NCBI GenBank assembly: GCA_038746265.1
Contig: JBCDKU010000001.1
Span: forward strand, 54,281-118,280
Direction of reading: 5' to 3'
Length of the DNA stretch: 64,000 nucleotides
Source: Planctomycetota bacterium
GTDB lineage: Bacteria > Planctomycetota > Phycisphaerae > Phycisphaerales > UBA1924
Positions within the stretch are counted from its first letter, which is position 1; the number at the start of each line of letters is the position of its first letter. Positions 2,609 through 8,796 of the stretch are shown in pieces. A program made the translations under genes and the position numbers. Under the pieces are notes generated by a model that did no database searches, was not told the DNA's origin, and saw only the letters and a list, made by a program, of their open reading frames with translations.

Positions 2609-2740
2609 CGCCAGATCCAGGCGCAAGCCCAAAGACAGCCCCACCCGCGCAACACCCGCGCCCCAAATCCGATAGCCCCCACCAACCAGACCCCGATATC
2701 ACTGTCCAAACACTCGCGCAACAGCTTGCGAGGAGCGCCC

Positions 2741-3385
2741 ATGCTGCACACCAAAGACCTCATCAAGCCCATCGACCTCGACACCATCATCACCCGATGG
2801 CCCGACTCGAACCCACAGCTCGAAGCCGCCGCCACCGAGCGCCTCACCCTCGCGCCGATCACCGAGGCCGACCGCCACCAGCTCACCGCGATCGTCGCGC
2901 GAAACCGCGCCCGCCTCGACCGCCTCATCCCCCTCCACGACGAACGCAACGGCGAGACCCCGAACGACTGGTTCGACAAGCAGCTCACCCTGCACGACCA
3001 GGCCGTCCGCAGCGGCAACGCGTGGCGCCGCGTCCTCCGCGACAACGAGACCGACGCCATCCTCGGCGCGGTCAACCTCAACGCCATCAGCCGCGGCCTC
3101 GAGTGCGAAGCCGACGCCTGCGTCTGGCTCGACGAACACGCCCAGCGCCAGGGCTTCGCCACCGAAGCCATCGCCGCCGCGCTCGCGATCGCCTTCGCCA
3201 TGCCCACCCGGGGCCTGGGCCTCACCGCCGTCCACGGCGGCATCCAGCCCGACAACTTCAAGAGCAAGCGCATCGCCGCCAGGTGCGGCTTCCGCCTTGA
3301 CCCCCGCAAGTCCTCCCACCTCCGGATCAACGGCCGCTGGATCAACCACGAATTCCACGTGGCAACCCCACCCATCACCGGCTGA
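2741..3385 (+). CDS. GNAT family N-acetyltransferase (RimJ/RimL-like)
   Basis: ORF 2726..3385 with ATG at 2741. RLTLAPITEAD..., acetyl-CoA motif region QRQGFATEAIAAALAIAF, and C-terminal NFKSKRIAARCGFRL typical of RimJ/L-type GNATs. Confidence 0.75.
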   Translation: MLHTKDLIKPIDLDTIITRWPDSNPQLEAAATERLTLAPITEADRHQLTAIVARNRARLDRLIPLHDERNGETPNDWFDKQLTLHDQAVRSGNAWRRVLRDNETDAILGAVNLNAISRGLECEADACVWLDEHAQRQGFATEAIAAALAIAFAMPTRGLGLTAVHGGIQPDNFKSKRIAARCGFRLDPRKSSHLRINGRWINHEFHVATPPITG

Positions 3386-3429: not shown

Positions 3430-4980
3430 TCACCACTGCTTCTTCTCCGTCCGGTACCCCGCGTCCAGGTTCTGCACCAGATACCGAAGCGCGTCCACCG
3501 CGTGATCCGAGCCGTCCTTCACCGGCTCCAATGACTCGGGCCGATCGCTCGGGTACCGGTACCGCTCGAGCGACTCGATCAGCTTCGCGCACCGCCGATG
3601 CACATACAGCCTCGGCGGCCCGCTCGCCGGCTTGAGCCGCGCACGCACCAGATCAAGCCCCGCGTTCACGCCCATCTTGCGGTCGCGCACGGTCAGCCCC
3701 GCCTTCCGCATCACCTGCACCGGGCTGAGCCCCGTCTGATCGCTCCGCTGCCGACCCGCCGGATCCACACCAACCCAGACCGGTGACGCGGGCCCGTTCG
3801 ACCCGATCGCCTCGATGTGCTTCGCCAGCACCTCGCCCGCGACCACCCGCTCATGGGCGATCCGCAGCACGCCGTCACCATCGACAGCGCCCCACAGGAC
3901 CACGGTCGGCGCGCGGATCCCGAAGTCCATCCCGCACACCCACGCACGACCGTCGCCCCCCTCGGACAGCGCCTCGACCACGTGAACCCTCGCGTCGAAC
4001 TCGGGCAGCACGCAGTCCGTTCGGCGGGGCCGATCGCCCAGCATCTCCGCCGCCCAGGTCTGCTCGCCCACGCGCGACTTGAGCGTCAGCGCATCCTCGA
4101 TCGGCACGTGCCCCGCCGCCTCGCCCCGCGCGTCACGCTCCTTGGCGCGCCCGCCGCACTCCGGCGCGAGCGCACAGCTCTCGCAGTCGTGCTCATCGCC
4201 GCACGCGCCGAGCACATCGACCACGCCCCACTTGAACAGCTTCCGCGACCCCTTCTCGCCCGCCTCGCGGACAAGCCGGTACATCAGGCCGTACGGGATG
4301 TGCATCGTGCTGAGGCACTCGATGGTGCCGGGCACGAAGACGTCGCCGCACATCTTGCTTCTCGTTGTGAGCTGCGCCGCCTCCCAGACCTCCGGATCGA
4401 ACAGCTCGACCTCGTCGCACCGCAGCTTCTGGACTCTCGTGCCGCGGACCGACCGCTGCGACTGCGTGAGCAGCTGCGCCCGCGAGCGGTTCACGAGCCG
4501 CAGCTTTTTCTCTGTGGGCTTGCCCTCGACGAGCGACTCGAGCTCGGGCTCCTCGAACAGCGTCCGCAGGTGCCCGTAGACGTGCTGGGCCTGCTCGAGC
4601 GAGCCCGCGAGGATGCGCACCTTGATCGTCGGCTTAAAGATCAGATCCAGCGCCGTCGCGACCGCCGCGAGGAACGTCTTGCCCCCGCCCCGGTTTGCCC
4701 ACACCACGCTGTCCGGGCTCGCGGGCGTCACCACGGGCAGCCCGCCCGAGTCGTCCAGCACGCCGCCGTCAAAGAACGCGTGCGCCAGGTAGTCGAACGG
4801 CGCCGCGTGCCCCTCGACGAGCGCGCTCGTCGGGAACACAAGCCCCATCACGTCGCGGCACCACGCGTGCAGCTCACCCGCCGTCTTCGGTCGCTCCCAG
4901 GGGCACTCGCCCGCCGACCACCGCTCCGCGCGCGACTTCGCCGCGCCCTTCTTCTGGTCCCCGTCTCTCGATCCGGTCAT
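3430..4980 (-). CDS. phage terminase large subunit (TerL)-like protein, apparently intact
   Basis: Walker A NRGGGKTF, Walker B LRCDEVELFD, nuclease motifs VCGMDFG, VGVDPAG and KDGSDHAVDALRYLV. GGAG lies 9 nt upstream of ATG 4980. Confidence 0.85.
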   Translation of the reverse strand: MTGSRDGDQKKGAAKSRAERWSAGECPWERPKTAGELHAWCRDVMGLVFPTSALVEGHAAPFDYLAHAFFDGGVLDDSGGLPVVTPASPDSVVWANRGGGKTFLAAVATALDLIFKPTIKVRILAGSLEQAQHVYGHLRTLFEEPELESLVEGKPTEKKLRLVNRSRAQLLTQSQRSVRGTRVQKLRCDEVELFDPEVWEAAQLTTRSKMCGDVFVPGTIECLSTMHIPYGLMYRLVREAGEKGSRKLFKWGVVDVLGACGDEHDCESCALAPECGGRAKERDARGEAAGHVPIEDALTLKSRVGEQTWAAEMLGDRPRRTDCVLPEFDARVHVVEALSEGGDGRAWVCGMDFGIRAPTVVLWGAVDGDGVLRIAHERVVAGEVLAKHIEAIGSNGPASPVWVGVDPAGRQRSDQTGLSPVQVMRKAGLTVRDRKMGVNAGLDLVRARLKPASGPPRLYVHRRCAKLIESLERYRYPSDRPESLEPVKDGSDHAVDALRYLVQNLDAGYRTEKKQW

Positions 4981-5019
4981 CCGTCGCTCCGTCGGGGGAT
5001 GTCGCGTGCGTCAAACTGT

Positions 5020-5217
5020 TCACCCCGCCCGGCGGCGTTCATCGATCTCAAGTCCCAGCGCGAGCAGCAGAGCACAGCTCCTCGTCTTGTGGTGCCGCCG
5101 CAGCACGCGGAGCACCGCGGTCCTTTCTTGTGCGGTTAAGAAGAACGTCAGCCCCACCCGCGCGTCCGCGGGCTCCGTGTCGGGCTTCGGCTTCGGGACA
5201 CGATCAGGCGTACGCAT
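5020..5217 (-). CDS. small ribbon-helix-helix-like protein
   Basis: Internal ATG 5217 of ORF 5020..5412, overlapping the upstream gene by 14 nt. RVGLTFFLT (beta strand), AQERTAVLRVLRR and RSCALLLALGLEI (two helices) fit a CopG/MobC-type RHH pattern. Third-position GC is fairly high. Confidence 0.5.
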   Translation of the reverse strand: MRTPDRVPKPKPDTEPADARVGLTFFLTAQERTAVLRVLRRHHKTRSCALLLALGLEIDERRRAG

Positions 5218-6550
5218 GAGCCACACTCCCCCCGCCGCACACCAGCGCCGCGACCCGCGCCGCGGCGGCGCGCATGACCTGAGCGGACGTCTCGAGCCAC
5301 CTCGTCCGCGCGCCGCTCTCACGCTTCCACCGCGCGACCTCGTGCGCAAGCCAGCTCGATTCCATGATCCGCTCGGCCTGCTTCCGCTCAACGAGCCGCC
5401 ACGCCTCGACACCGGCTTCCTCGATCGCGTCGAGCAAGCGGCGGTCGGCGTCGCCCGGCGCGAGCCGGTACCGCGTCATGCCCGCGGCATCAAAGAAGGG
5501 GCTTGCCGCGCCCATCACCGAGACCGCCTCGGTCGCTTGCGTCTCGGGCTCGGCGAGGTACACGCGGACCAATCCGCTCGCGACACCCAGCCCGCGCCAT
5601 CTCGGCGTGACAACAAAGCGCGAGATGCAGCGCAGCTCACGGTTCACACGCATCGCGGCGGCGTGCTTGTCGTCGGCGCTGTACCGATCCGGCCACGCGC
5701 GGTCGCGCCAGGAGCCGTTGAGCGTTGGATAGCTCGCGACCAGCACACCCGCGACATCGCCCGGGCGCGTGACGGCGCGGAGGACGCGCGACCACGTGGC
5801 CGGGCGACCGGCGCGGTAGTGATGATGGGCGAGCCCATCGAAGTCGGCGATCGTCCCGCGCTCGATTGTCGGCCGGCGTCGCAGCGCGAGCGGCCTGGTC
5901 TTCCGGGGGCGGGCGATCTCGCACGATCGCTCACGGAGCCGGAGGTTGAGATCCGGCGCGATCAGCGAAGGAAGGTCCTCGTGGGCCGAGGCGACAACGA
6001 GACGGAGACCGTTCGTTGATCGAGAAAGCCGTAGCCGAACGGCAGCGGCGACACACGCGGCCGTCTCGCGATCGAGGACGGACCCGAACTCGTCGGCGAG
6101 CAACCAGCCGGCGTTGGTTTGTTCTGCCCGGTGCAGCGCGATCGCAAGCGACAGGCGCGCGCGTTCGCCGTCGGAGAGCTGGCCCGGCGTCACCGCGAGG
6201 ACGCGGGCCTCTCCGAGACCGGCGGCGGTGAGCGCGGGCATCAGCTCGCTCGCGGCGAGGCCCTCGAACTGGTCGGCGATGAGGCGCTTCGGTGAAGGCG
6301 CTGCGACGACGACGGCATCGTCGCCGAGCGTCTCTGCGAGTGCGCGGAGGAGCCTGGACTTGCCGGCACCGGAGTGACCGCCGATCGTCGCGACCTCTCC
6401 CGGCTCGAGCTGCCTCAGCGCCGCGAGTGCTTCGTCGTGCGTCGGTGGGATGACGCTCCCGCGTTCGACTGTGACGCCGAACGGCGCGAGCGCTTCGAGG
6501 CAGCGGCGTGTGGGCCGCGTGCTTGCCGTGAACTGCGCGTGGTCTTTCAT
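5204..6550 (-). CDS. ABC-type ATPase fused to a GNAT-like acetyltransferase domain
   Basis: ATG 6550 (ATGA overlap with the upstream gene). Walker A GGHSGAGKS, signature-like QLSDGERARLSLA, Walker B WLLADEFG, H-loop ASAHED. The C-terminal half carries the GNAT motif-A-like RFVVTPRWRGLGVASGLV. The R/P-rich 6551..6745 extension is rejected. Confidence 0.7.
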   Translation of the reverse strand: MKDHAQFTASTRPTRRCLEALAPFGVTVERGSVIPPTHDEALAALRQLEPGEVATIGGHSGAGKSRLLRALAETLGDDAVVVAAPSPKRLIADQFEGLAASELMPALTAAGLGEARVLAVTPGQLSDGERARLSLAIALHRAEQTNAGWLLADEFGSVLDRETAACVAAAVRLRLSRSTNGLRLVVASAHEDLPSLIAPDLNLRLRERSCEIARPRKTRPLALRRRPTIERGTIADFDGLAHHHYRAGRPATWSRVLRAVTRPGDVAGVLVASYPTLNGSWRDRAWPDRYSADDKHAAAMRVNRELRCISRFVVTPRWRGLGVASGLVRVYLAEPETQATEAVSVMGAASPFFDAAGMTRYRLAPGDADRRLLDAIEEAGVEAWRLVERKQAERIMESSWLAHEVARWKRESGARTRWLETSAQVMRAAAARVAALVCGGGSVAHAYA

Positions 6551-7074
6551 GCCGCCACCTCTTCGCGTCGGCTCTCGGCGCGGGCGTGCTTGCGGGCGTC
6601 GGTCTCGGCGGCGAACAGCGCGGCGATGATGTCCTCGGCGCGGCGGATCTGGTGGATGGTGAGTTCGAGTTGGGCCGCCGTCTCGCGGAGGGTGCGGCCG
6701 TAGAGCACGCGGAGGGTCGCGATGCGGCGGCGTGTGGTCGGCCACTGCTCGCGGTTGCGGGCGACGAACGCGAAGCGCGGGTCGAGCACGCGCTTGATGA
6801 TGCGGCGGACGCGGGCGCGCAGGCGGCGGGGCGGGACCGAGAGCAGCGCCGCGATCTCGCTGATGCGGCGGTTGTCGCGGTAGATCGCGAGCATGAGCTC
6901 GCGATCATCGGGCTCGAGCACAACGGCCCGCAGAACAATGGTTTCGATCAGCTCGCGGTCGCGCCGGCGTCGAAGGTCGCTCGCCTCATCGGGGTCGAAT
7001 TGCGTGCCGCCGCGGAAGATCCGCGGTGGTGCTTTCGCTGTAACTCGTTGTTCTGACTTTGCTTGTCGTTCCAT
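6547..7074 (-). CDS. DNA-binding protein with two sigma-70 region-4-like HTH units (possible TerS-like or regulatory role)
   Basis: DRELMLAIYRDNRRISEIAALLSVPPRRLRARVRRIIKRV and RRRIATLRVLYGRTLRETAAQLELTIHQIRRAEDII both look like region-4/LuxR-type HTHs. It is the first gene of the TerL operon. Confidence 0.55.
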   Translation of the reverse strand: MERQAKSEQRVTAKAPPRIFRGGTQFDPDEASDLRRRRDRELIETIVLRAVVLEPDDRELMLAIYRDNRRISEIAALLSVPPRRLRARVRRIIKRVLDPRFAFVARNREQWPTTRRRIATLRVLYGRTLRETAAQLELTIHQIRRAEDIIAALFAAETDARKHARAESRREEVAA

Positions 7075-7102
7075 TGCTGCTCCGATCAGGCTTCGGCCTT
7101 TG

Positions 7103-7149
7103 TTCGCTATCCAGAGAACACCATACCCTTGCTTCGCTGATCTGAGAAC
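7103..7149. promoter_or_regulatory. two copies of a TTCGCT-N5-GAGAAC operator-like repeat, 30 bp apart
   Basis: Copies at 7103-7119 and 7133-7149. The first also forms the palindrome TGTTC-N10-GAACA (7101-7120). Both lie in the 133-bp AT-richer divergent intergenic region. Confidence 0.4.
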
Positions 7150-7157
7150 GATAGAAT
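7129..7157 (+). promoter_or_regulatory. sigma-70-like promoter TTGCTT-N17-TAGAAT reading toward the repressor gene
   Basis: -35 at 7129-7134, -10 at 7152-7157, 17-nt spacer. Operator repeat 2 occupies the spacer. Confidence 0.35.
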
Positions 7158-7207
7158 TGTGTTTTGTTTGGTATCGCAGGAAGATTGCGCACGGGGCCCG
7201 TCACTCG

Positions 7208-7987
7208 ATGCAGAAAGATCCGCAACAGACCTTCGGCGCGCGCATCCGAGCGGCCCGGACTGCCCGCGGGATGTCGCTGCGGCGGCTCTCGGAGCTCACC
7301 GAATGTGCGAGCGGGTACTTGTCGCAGATCGAGCGTGGCGAGCGGCCGCCGCCGAGCGCGGCGGTGATCGCGAAGCTGGAAGTCGCGCTATCGCTCGATC
7401 GCGGTGCACTCGAGTCCGCGGCGGGCTGGGAGCGGACGCCCCAAGCGGTGCGGGACGCGATCGCGGCGCTGGCGCGCGGCGGTCTGGACGCTGCGCACGG
7501 GTCGGGTGAACTGCGGCGGCTGATCGAGTCGTTCGGCGGGCGTGTCGATGAGGACGCGGAGCCGGTGCGGCGGGCGCTGCCGTTTGAGGTGCCGCTGATC
7601 AATCAGGTCGCGGCGGGCTACCCGGCGGGGTTCACGGATCTCGGGTTCCCGGCGAAGGTCGCGGACGAGTACGTGCGGACGACCGACGTGGGCGATCCGG
7701 ATGCGTTCGCGGCGCGGGTGGTGGGCGACTCGATGGAGCCCGTGTACCGCGAGGGCGACGTGGTGGTGTTCAGCCCTGCCCGGGACATCGAGGACGGGAG
7801 CGACTGTTTCGCGCGGCTCGAGCCCGATCACGAGAGCACGTTCAAGCGGGTGTACTTCGAGCGGGGCGACGCGGGCGAGGAACTGATCCGGCTGCAGCCG
7901 ATCAACAACCGGTACGCGCCGCGGACGCTGCCGCGCGAGCAGGTGGCGGGGCTGTACCGCGCGGTTTCGGTGACGCGGAGCGTGTGA
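7208..7987 (+). CDS. XRE-family HTH + S24 (LexA/CI-like) autocleavable repressor
   Basis: ATG 7208 in ORF 6893..7987. HTH_3-like FGARIRAARTARGMSLRRLSELTECASGYLSQIERGER, LexA-like scissile region NQVAAGYP, catalytic Ser in VVGDSMEP and Lys in TFKRVYFE. Confidence 0.85.
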   Translation: MQKDPQQTFGARIRAARTARGMSLRRLSELTECASGYLSQIERGERPPPSAAVIAKLEVALSLDRGALESAAGWERTPQAVRDAIAALARGGLDAAHGSGELRRLIESFGGRVDEDAEPVRRALPFEVPLINQVAAGYPAGFTDLGFPAKVADEYVRTTDVGDPDAFAARVVGDSMEPVYREGDVVVFSPARDIEDGSDCFARLEPDHESTFKRVYFERGDAGEELIRLQPINNRYAPRTLPREQVAGLYRAVSVTRSV

Positions 7988-8023
7988 GGGCGCGGCGATC
8001 GCGCGGGTACACTCAGTGAGGTT

Positions 8024-8097
8024 GCCCTCGTAGCTCAGCTGGATAGAGCGGCGGATTCCTAATCCGCAGGTCAGAGGTTCGAATCCTCTCGGGGGTG
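8024..8097 (+). tRNA. tRNA-Arg (anticodon CCT)
   Basis: Cloverleaf read by eye: acceptor GCCCTCG/CGGGGGT (G1-U72 and U5-G68 wobbles), D arm GCTCAGCTGGATAGAGC, anticodon stem GCGGA/TCCGC with loop TTCCTAA, T arm AGAGGTTCGAATCCTCT. No encoded CCA. Confidence 0.85.
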
Positions 8098-8118
8098 CTT
8101 GCGTGCGGGCGGCGGTGC

Positions 8119-8796
8119 TCAGTCGCCGAACCCGAGCGATGTGCCGAACTCGCTGACCTCGTTGAAGATCGAGTGGGCCGTGGCCTCGGCGGCGCCCATC
8201 GCGGCGGAGATGGTGCCGGTCGCGATCTCGGTCGCTCGCTCCAGCACCACCTGCAGCGCTGCGCGGACGCGGTTCGCGCCGCGGGCGAGCGCGCCGATGA
8301 GACGGCGGAGCAGACCATCGATGCGAGTGTGCAACGCCTGGATCGTGCGGTAGACGCGCTCGCGGGCGGGCTCGAGCGTCTGGGCGACGGCGATCGCGCC
8401 GCGCAACGCCGTGTTGATCGCGGTCGCGAGCGCGCGGCTGTTCTGGATCCGCCGCAGGATCGCCTGCTGGAAGCGGACGAGGCGTGTGATGATCGCCTGC
8501 ACGCGGCTCGCGAGGGCTTGTAGCGCGGCCGCCATCTGGTGGACGCCGCCGGAGACGACGGTACTGGTGGCGCGCGTGATGTGGGCGACGATGTCGAGTC
8601 CGACGCGGGCGAGCCGCTCGGCGAAGGTCACGATCCGGGCGATGCGGTCTGCGAGCGAGCGGAAGAGGTTCGCGACGTTCGTTGCGGCTCCCTGCGTGAC
8701 GGCGCGGAGTGCCTGGCGGAGCGCGGAGTCGTAGTCGCGCAGGGCGCGGTCGATGTTGCCGGCCGTGCGTTCGACGTCTTCGATGGTGATGGGCAT
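8119..8796 (-). CDS. hypothetical all-alpha, Ala/Arg-rich protein
   Basis: 225-aa ORF with heptad-like helical repeats (RALRQALRAVTQG..., AIITRLVRFQQAILRRIQ...). No signal peptide, TM helix or recognisable motif. Confidence 0.5.
   Translation of the reverse strand: MPITIEDVERTAGNIDRALRDYDSALRQALRAVTQGAATNVANLFRSLADRIARIVTFAERLARVGLDIVAHITRATSTVVSGGVHQMAAALQALASRVQAIITRLVRFQQAILRRIQNSRALATAINTALRGAIAVAQTLEPARERVYRTIQALHTRIDGLLRRLIGALARGANRVRAALQVVLERATEIATGTISAAMGAAEATAHSIFNEVSEFGTSLGFGD

Follow-up and report, generated by a model that had tools for sequence, protein, structure and literature searches.

How does a large terminase with all its catalytic motifs come to lie in a bacterial chromosome with no capsid gene beside it? 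The question is raised by a 64,000-nucleotide stretch, here called the window, of contig JBCDKU010000001.1 from a Planctomycetota bacterium of the Phycisphaerales. It carries an operon for a TerL-like protein, a small ribbon-helix-helix (RHH)-like protein, a fusion of an ABC ATPase to a GNAT domain (ABC::GNAT) and a tandem helix-turn-helix (HTH) protein, with a divergent gene for a repressor that joins an XRE-type HTH to an S24 peptidase domain (XRE-S24). A preliminary description, made from the letters of the DNA, regarded the TerL as an orphan and offered three candidate explanations: a packaging-only satellite, a domesticated SOS-induced DNA-processing module or an anti-phage system with TerL as its effector. 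The answer favoured here, which we judge probable on balance, is that window positions 3430-7987 are the locus for packaging and control in a gene set of phage origin that Phycisphaerales-type Planctomycetota have domesticated, and that this locus operates in trans with a head locus. The set as a whole would resemble a gene transfer agent (GTA), possibly one without a tail. What makes this reading the most likely is the combination of a head locus in which no terminase is detected with a terminase locus that lacks head genes, both in the same taxon and of the same viral ancestry, and occasionally adjacent or fused. A full-text search for literature on terminase, capsid or GTA in Phycisphaerae or Planctomycetes, on COG2401 and on DUF5309 returned no relevant description.

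The terminase and its recurrence

Both profile and structure searches uphold the identification of the 516-residue protein as an intact terminase, on which the preliminary description had built its argument. The protein matches eight terminase-large-subunit families of PHROG (best, phrog_2 at 3.6e-16), and the PHROG terminase nuclease families are found at 1e-9 to 1e-11; Pfam contributes only a sub-threshold match to Terminase_6C. An AlphaFold model (predicted local distance difference test score, pLDDT, 74) was compared with the PDB by Foldseek, and its 29 best matches are all large terminases, including those of D6E, T4 (gp17), P22, Sf6, SPP1 and T7. The N-terminal ASCE ATPase contains a Walker A motif, RGGGKT, and a Walker B motif with the catalytic Glu, CDEVE, and its predicted fold resembles the ATPase domains of T4 gp17 and D6E. 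The C-terminal RNase-H-like nuclease, for which the model gives a TM-score of 0.73 to the P22 nuclease domain, provides D352, D406, D489 and D492. All of these motifs and residues are invariant in an alignment of 26 homologues.

The same alignment reveals an invariant Cys4 insert between ATPase and nuclease (C260, C266, C269 and C275; window 4155-4202), which could bind zinc or an Fe-S cluster. The insert has the spacing C-x5-C-x(2-40)-C-x5-C and is also present in viral relatives (L084-L088), and we know of no insert of this kind in a structurally characterised terminase. The C-terminal tail is likewise conserved among homologues, a pattern that would fit a fixed protein partner such as a portal.

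A protein search retrieved more than 2,600 TerL homologues, the top 120 of which are at least 54% identical and derive from Phycisphaerales-type metagenome-assembled genomes (MAGs), megabase-sized chromosomes among them. When one genome per species was scanned, at least 567 genomes contained a TerL relative. Counts of block members and flanks refer throughout to the best 80 species-level TerL loci out of these. In that set, TerL (80 loci) is accompanied by ABC::GNAT in 73, by the HTH protein in 70, by the divergent XRE-S24 gene in 68 and by the small protein in 54. Head genes occur within 10 kb in 2 of the 80. The recurrent neighbours are ordinary cellular genes (DUF6677, ferredoxin, UbiA, MetRS and GAPDH). 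In the complete chromosome CP060234 the block adjoins NusG-SecE-L33-EF-Tu, and in the closest relative (76% identity) the same block stands among genes of glycolysis and the tricarboxylic acid cycle. The GC content of the source MAG is roughly 70%, and that of the block equals that of its flanks. One contig titled 'Cyanobacteria bacterium CYA' (L013, RHKP01000007.1) carries a complete Phycisphaerales-type block with 61% TerL identity and is probably mis-binned.

Substitution patterns reveal purifying selection on the closest gene pairs. The ratio of nonsynonymous to synonymous substitution rates (dN/dS, by the Nei-Gojobori method) is 0.09-0.23 for TerL, 0.13-0.43 for ABC::GNAT, 0.04-0.19 for the HTH protein and 0.04-0.24 for the repressor. 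Only the closest pairs were used because synonymous sites are saturated in this GC3-rich lineage and raise the values over all pairs. Relaxed selection on TerL orthologues, which the preliminary description had raised as a possible outcome, is not seen in these values. We infer, mainly from synteny, that the block has descended vertically.

Few copies of the protein are found among viral sequences. IMG/VR yields only six TerL relatives, and the best of these is a truncated copy with 48% identity (L083, IMGVR_UViG_3300034175_000195). Its TerL is cut after the ATPase domain, a GNAT fragment precedes it, and the contig, otherwise uninformative, also encodes an AAA_25 protein; this TerL may be a decayed or recombined copy.

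The head locus and phage relatives

The TerL is an orphan only locally, because its lineage maintains a locus for a portal and a major capsid protein (MCP) in which no terminase is detected. The original label therefore suits the window and fails for the lineage, where this portal and MCP locus is conserved outside the stretch analysed. It was studied in 82 loci, two from annotated genomes (L119 and L120) and 80 from metagenome contigs, in which the gene order is portal-h188-MCP-h216-h135-h132-h100-h208. The content is an SPP1-type portal, a scaffold-like protein, an SU10-type HK97 MCP and about five small proteins. Identity of the MCP across the 82 loci is 60-81%. The MCP family as a whole has more than 4,800 members, and its top 120 (68-81% identical), annotated as DUF5309 or SU10 MCP, lie on chromosomes of Phycisphaerales and Tepidisphaera. 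PHROG matches reach 5e-16 for the portal and 6e-72 for the MCP, and PDB profile searches match capsid proteins including that of phage SU10. Among the small proteins, h216 (11257-11907 in L119, and its orthologues) directly follows the capsid gene in most loci, and does so also in cassette L118, described below. It has a conserved DxDGDG..D motif that produces weak EF-hand (polcalcin) matches; PDB profile searches of h216 and h135 found nothing.

Of the 82 head loci, only 3 are matched by the TerL family profile, and in all 3 the match has further genes of the terminase module as neighbours. In the annotated head loci L119 and L120, none of the called genes has a recorded terminase domain. Head locus and terminase block are found within 10 kb of each other in L066 and L039, which were located by their TerL, and in L122, L146, L151 and L161, which were located by their MCP; in L151 they are contiguous. 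In L066, a run of portal, scaffold-like open reading frame (ORF), MCP and four small ORFs stops about 2 kb before the XRE-S24 gene, on its upstream side. A second MCP clade has its HTH and ABC::GNAT genes close to the portal. Most likely, a TerL of the window type serves the capsids of this lineage.

The viral ancestry of both gene sets can be traced through more distant relatives. In IMG/VR the MCP has three matches at about 60% identity, with the next at 46% and below. Viruses with the nearest MCPs (36-39% identity) encode a TerL of the same family 3-7 kb upstream, indicating a single viral lineage as the source of both TerL and head genes. When 1.84 billion representatives were searched exhaustively, 273 TerL clusters passed E <= 1e-30, with identities falling gradually to about 37%. 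In one of these relatives (L118, 40% identical), whose contig is cellular, the TerL gene immediately follows genes for an SPP1-type portal, an SU10-type MCP and a 222-aa protein. A second compact chromosomal cassette of portal, MCP and TerL, in L202, is preceded at a distance of 5 kb by an XRE-S24 gene (44% identical). The TerL of L201 (37-42% identical) belongs to a phage-like array that opens with XRE-S24 and continues, about 1.7 kb downstream, with a sigma4-HTH gene, ABC::GNAT (36% identical), ParB, an unassigned 171-aa ORF, TerL and a Mu-type portal; two ORFs, including one for an HDPD decoration protein, separate the portal from a lambda-E-type capsid gene. A 37%-identical TerL (P0360, ENA ERZ1426827) stands alone among cellular genes (glmS-like, M16 peptidases), with no module or head genes within 10 kb.

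The ABC::GNAT gene leads to phages as well. Genes for an ABC ATPase and a GNAT, often split, immediately precede those for a DNA-binding protein, TerL, portal and capsid in Pseudomonas phage nickie and the SSU5-like phage-plasmids, and fused ABC::GNAT genes lie beside TerL-like ORFs in at least nine IMG/VR contigs. Because the ABC/GNAT-TerL arrangement recurs in phages and in L201, the operon of the window is identified as a phage packaging module. The records of loci with ABC-ATPase/GNAT beside TerL, often together with ParB-like genes (L081, MZ779062; L082, NC_042091; L089-L115; L201), assign no function to the pair.

Organisation and control of the terminase operon

The ORF listing reproduces the operon coordinates, both gene overlaps and the divergent repressor as first described (Table 1). 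The operon is tightly packed on the minus strand, its HTH and ABC::GNAT genes overlapping by an ATGA at 6547-6550 and its ABC::GNAT and small-protein genes by 14 nt at 5204-5217. In the public annotation, AAGI17_00280 is identical to the window TerL and AAGI17_00290 to ABC::GNAT.

Table 1. Features of the terminase locus and its control region, in window coordinates.
Feature	Position	Strand	Basis or remark
TerL-like ORF, 516 aa	3430-4980	-	ORF listing
Small RHH-like ORF, 65 aa	5020-5217	-	ORF listing
ABC-ATPase::GNAT, 448 aa	5204-6550	-	ORF listing
Tandem HTH protein, 175 aa	6547-7074	-	ORF listing
Operator O1, palindrome GTTCGCTATCCAGAGAAC	7102-7119		28 nt upstream of the HTH start codon
Probable operator O2, CTTCGCTGATCTGAGAAC	7132-7149		One arm mismatch; direct-repeat family D1, spacing 30 nt from O1
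XRE-HTH + S24 repressor	7208-7987	+	Most likely start ATG 7208, inside ORF 6893-7987
tRNA-Arg(CCT)	8024-8098		

The divergently encoded protein matches Peptidase_S24 (9e-18), HTH_31 (3e-10) and phrog_4 (2e-31), and its Ala-Gly site, GDSM Ser and FKR Lys are conserved in 65 orthologues. The preliminary description of an XRE-HTH and S24 repressor with a cleavage site and a Ser and Lys is thereby confirmed. Assignment as a canonical LexA was rejected: the TIGR00498 model, with a cut-off of 110.95 bits, gives 29.6 bits and covers the S24 part only, and the N-terminal domain is of the XRE type.

The divergent intergenic region contains a palindrome family with the consensus GTTCnCtnnatAGTGAACac, of the form GTTC-N10-GAAC (extended, GTTCAC-N6-GTGAAC). 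O1 is the sole exact GTTC-N10-GAAC in the 64-kb window. The 1.36 Mb of related TerL loci contain 54 exact matches, 41 of them in the homologous intergenic region, which makes up about 1% of that sequence, an enrichment of the divergent promoter of more than 200-fold. These figures provide strong comparative evidence that the motif is the operator through which the adjacent repressor acts. Its candidacy as a global SOS box was rejected: no other promoter copies were found in the 1.36 Mb of TerL loci or in 0.94 Mb of head loci. A search by k-mer counting for a shared promoter motif upstream of portal genes returned only GC-rich palindromes and a start-codon artefact.

The three proteins encoded with TerL would supply DNA recognition or assistance in packaging. 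The ABC-ATPase::GNAT fusion recognised in the preliminary description is verified by Pfam (ABC_tran at 2.9e-8, with weak GNAT matches), by PHROG (phrog_11143 at 1e-19), by conserved Walker A, signature, Walker B and GNAT acetyl-CoA (R-x-x-G-x-G) motifs and by a predicted structure (pLDDT 92.7) in which the N-terminal half adopts an ABC nucleotide-binding fold. A fold search of the PDB with this model found generic transporter nucleotide-binding domains only. The 175-aa protein had been credited with two HTHs like region 4 of sigma-70. The first exceeds the Pfam cut-off (Sigma70_r4_2 at 9e-8) and the same family is matched in 19 of 24 orthologues; for the second, the evidence comes from weaker HTH-family matches in orthologues, many of which match HTH_23, HTH_38 or HTH_28. 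The protein is a candidate DNA-recognition subunit or transcription activator. The 65-aa protein has no match in family searches, and the RHH-like label given to it goes back to a conserved strand-helix-helix core, LTFFLT..ER..VLR.L....R..ALL.ALG. A homologue lies directly upstream of TerL in 54 of the 80 loci and, in P0092, is fused to the TerL N terminus; the protein is a candidate DNA-binding or small-terminase-like accessory.

From these components a working cycle can be proposed. The XRE-S24 repressor would bind GTTC-N10-GAAC operators that overlap the operon promoter. DNA damage, acting through activated RecA, or some other trigger would then induce self-cleavage at the Ala-Gly site, and loss of the repressor would derepress the operon. 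The tandem-HTH and RHH-like proteins might recognise DNA, act as small-terminase-like subunits or activate the head genes, and ABC::GNAT could serve as a terminase accessory, as its phage homologues beside TerL suggest. TerL would cut DNA and pump it into procapsids supplied by the unlinked head locus. Operator binding and RecA-dependent cleavage are both predicted here from comparison of sequences.

In the annotated examples, neither locus has a gene for replication or integration within 10 kb. With two loci that are usually separated and no such genes, the system cannot move as a unit. This is the defining logic of a GTA, and we infer that particles are produced. At the level of the lineage, the phage-derived genes are chromosomal, conserved and under purifying selection, as is characteristic of GTAs, and in annotated examples the capacity for self-propagation, which GTAs also lack, is absent. 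More tentatively, and at less than even confidence, we propose that Phycisphaerae keep an independently domesticated, tail-less GTA-like system in which a damage-cleavable repressor frees the terminase operon and TerL fills SU10-type capsids with cellular DNA, with ABC::GNAT as a new accessory shared with phages.

Some other genes around the block appear to be incidental to it. The flanks of the window (GH81, ECF sigma, a kinase and a helical ORF) are not conserved with the block. A tRNA-Arg beside it is unique to this window, and the adjacency is regarded as incidental because it is not conserved at other loci; on the same ground the tRNA was rejected as an integration landmark. Next to the tRNA, a 225-aa all-helical ORF (8119-8796, minus strand) has weak matches to a tape-measure PHROG (phrog_5493, 9e-7) and to ZorA; it may be a piece of some unrelated prophage, or the matches may reflect composition. 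On the other side, a GNAT (Acetyltransf_3) gene at 2726-3385 on the plus strand is convergent with TerL. It is kept only in the closest sub-lineage (L001, L249 and L250) and is probably a lineage-specific neighbour, not a member of the system. The paralogous proteins encoded in tandem at positions 208-2608 all combine a hydrophobic segment with a zinc-ribbon motif at the C terminus (RRQLRRRHR.KHGLCL.CGY.L...CPECG). A zinc-ribbon protein of this type is encoded between head locus and terminase block in L066 (4614-5474).

Competing explanations and comparison with known systems

Several observations weigh against the assignment to a packaging locus that works in trans with a head locus. Searches of the 64-kb window by tblastn and with profiles, directed at the head-locus families and short of a general family scan of all window ORFs, detected neither a portal nor a capsid gene; the absence of structural, integration and replication genes at the locus, stated in the preliminary description, is to that extent borne out. 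No S24 operator was found upstream of the portal in the head loci. The small head-locus proteins match no known families, and no tail, lysis or maturation-protease genes were recognised, leaving release of particles and delivery of their DNA unexplained. Correlations between TerL and neighbour-gene distances, which could have supported vertical descent, are moderate (rho 0.3-0.55) and uninformative through saturation.

One rival is a capsid-independent, damage-induced module, in which TerL, guided by the HTH and RHH-like proteins and helped by ABC::GNAT, cuts or translocates chromosomal DNA, and the capsid locus is an unrelated relic or has another function. The terminase locus forms a complete unit, mostly well away from the head locus, with head genes within 10 kb in 2 of 80 loci; the S24 operator is found only at the terminase-operon promoter; and the 37%-identical TerL relative stands alone among cellular genes. 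Such a module leaves unexplained, however, why the head loci have no detected terminase other than the TerL of this module, in 3 of 82, and why both gene sets derive from one viral lineage and stand side by side or fused in several genomes. A further point against it is the tail conserved at the TerL C terminus, which would suit a partner such as a portal, and we regard this explanation as unlikely. Of the three candidates first offered, the domesticated SOS-induced module comes closest to the favoured reading. A decaying prophage remnant with a TerL frame open by chance might be suggested by a window devoid of structural genes and by the weakly tape-measure-like helical ORF beside the tRNA, but neither that ORF nor the tRNA is conserved with the block, which is present in at least 567 genomes with invariant catalytic motifs and dN/dS far below 1. 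The conservation data already refute this possibility, whose probability we put close to nil, and the original argument that an intact TerL speaks against prophage debris has only gained from them.

An anti-phage role was also among the initial suggestions: TerL, with or without host capsids, would be switched on during infection or prophage induction and serve either as the effector nuclease or as a decoy through which packaging of the invading phage is hijacked or blocked. Repressor-controlled phage-derived genes are common in defence islands, and in PADLOC the ATPase models mad3 and mad8 are weakly matched by ABC::GNAT. No model of PADLOC-DB 2.0, on the other hand, matches TerL, the HTH protein or the small protein; PADLOC and NCBIfam searches of the block proteins gave nothing specific, with only weak generic ATPase and HTH matches overall. 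The block is near-universal, syntenic and strongly conserved where a defence system would be patchy and fast-evolving, and its neighbours are housekeeping, not defence, genes. The candidate does not survive this comparison well, and we deem it quite improbable. A satellite, or an island like the capsid-forming phage-inducible chromosomal islands (cf-PICIs), would make its own heads and terminase and borrow tails from helper phages. cf-PICIs encode their own capsid, portal, head accessory proteins and terminase, lack tail genes and are under repressor control. The gene content described here offers a parallel, with capsid, portal, head accessories, terminase, an SOS-type repressor and no recognisable tail genes. 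Yet annotated or clustered flanks contain no integrase, att site, primase or replication gene within 10 kb, the adjacent tRNA is not conserved, the loci are split across the chromosome and GC content equals that of the flanks. The packaging-only satellite of the preliminary description fares no better, having no integrase, att site or replication gene and recurring in the same arrangement in 68-73 of 80 species-level genomes; an island of either kind is, in our estimation, very improbable.

If the favoured reading, a domesticated packaging locus paired with a separate head locus, is correct, a capsid-portal-terminase set with an SOS-type switch, retained across an order or class, would add a GTA lineage. 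To our knowledge only a handful of independent GTA lineages have been recognised, none of them in Planctomycetota. The set would then give access to the study of horizontal gene flow in a phylum whose cell biology is unusual, and its lack of recognisable tail genes could show whether a GTA needs a delivery apparatus at all. The unstudied ABC-ATPase::GNAT beside TerL in phages supplies a concrete hypothesis for a new packaging accessory. There is a practical consequence too: virus-prediction tools will encounter these host genes in every Phycisphaerales MAG, and a few copies have already entered IMG/VR.

Comparison with known systems places the locus nearest to the GTAs (RcGTA of Rhodobacterales and its alphaproteobacterial relatives, BaGTA, VSH-1, Dd1 and VTA), with which it shares chromosomal, taxon-wide head and terminase genes under purifying selection. 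Known GTAs likewise lack replication and integration genes, are spread over several loci and have their control tied to host stress or SOS-type signals. The proposed Phycisphaerales system differs in its independent origin, with an SU10-type MCP, an SPP1-type portal and a TerL of a clade marked by WANRGGGK and the Cys4 insert. It has no recognisable tail, protease or lysis genes, its TerL lies apart from the head genes under its own S24 repressor, and ABC-ATPase::GNAT and a tandem sigma-4 HTH protein take the place where a canonical small terminase would be. From cf-PICIs it is set apart by its two loci and by a block whose gene order is kept across species in housekeeping contexts.

The regulator resembles LexA and lambda CI-type repressors in its N-terminal HTH, C-terminal S24 domain, Ala-Gly site, Ser/Lys dyad and palindromic operator in a divergent promoter. 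In contrast to LexA, its DNA-binding domain is of the XRE type and not a winged helix, and GTTCAC-N6-GTGAAC is found at this promoter only, with no sign of a wider SOS regulon. The packaging genes find their counterpart in SSU5-like phages, nickie and related uncultured phages, where an ABC ATPase and GNAT also lie directly upstream of a DNA-binding protein and TerL. There the ATPase and GNAT are often split, a ParB or methyltransferase gene stands alongside, full head and tail modules follow and TerL, in the SSU5-like phages and nickie, is only about 24% identical to that of the window, whereas the window ABC::GNAT is fused and chromosomal and its head genes are elsewhere. Unusual in this comparison are an apparently tail-less gene set, a separate terminase operon under its own repressor and an ABC-ATPase::GNAT accessory shared with some phages.

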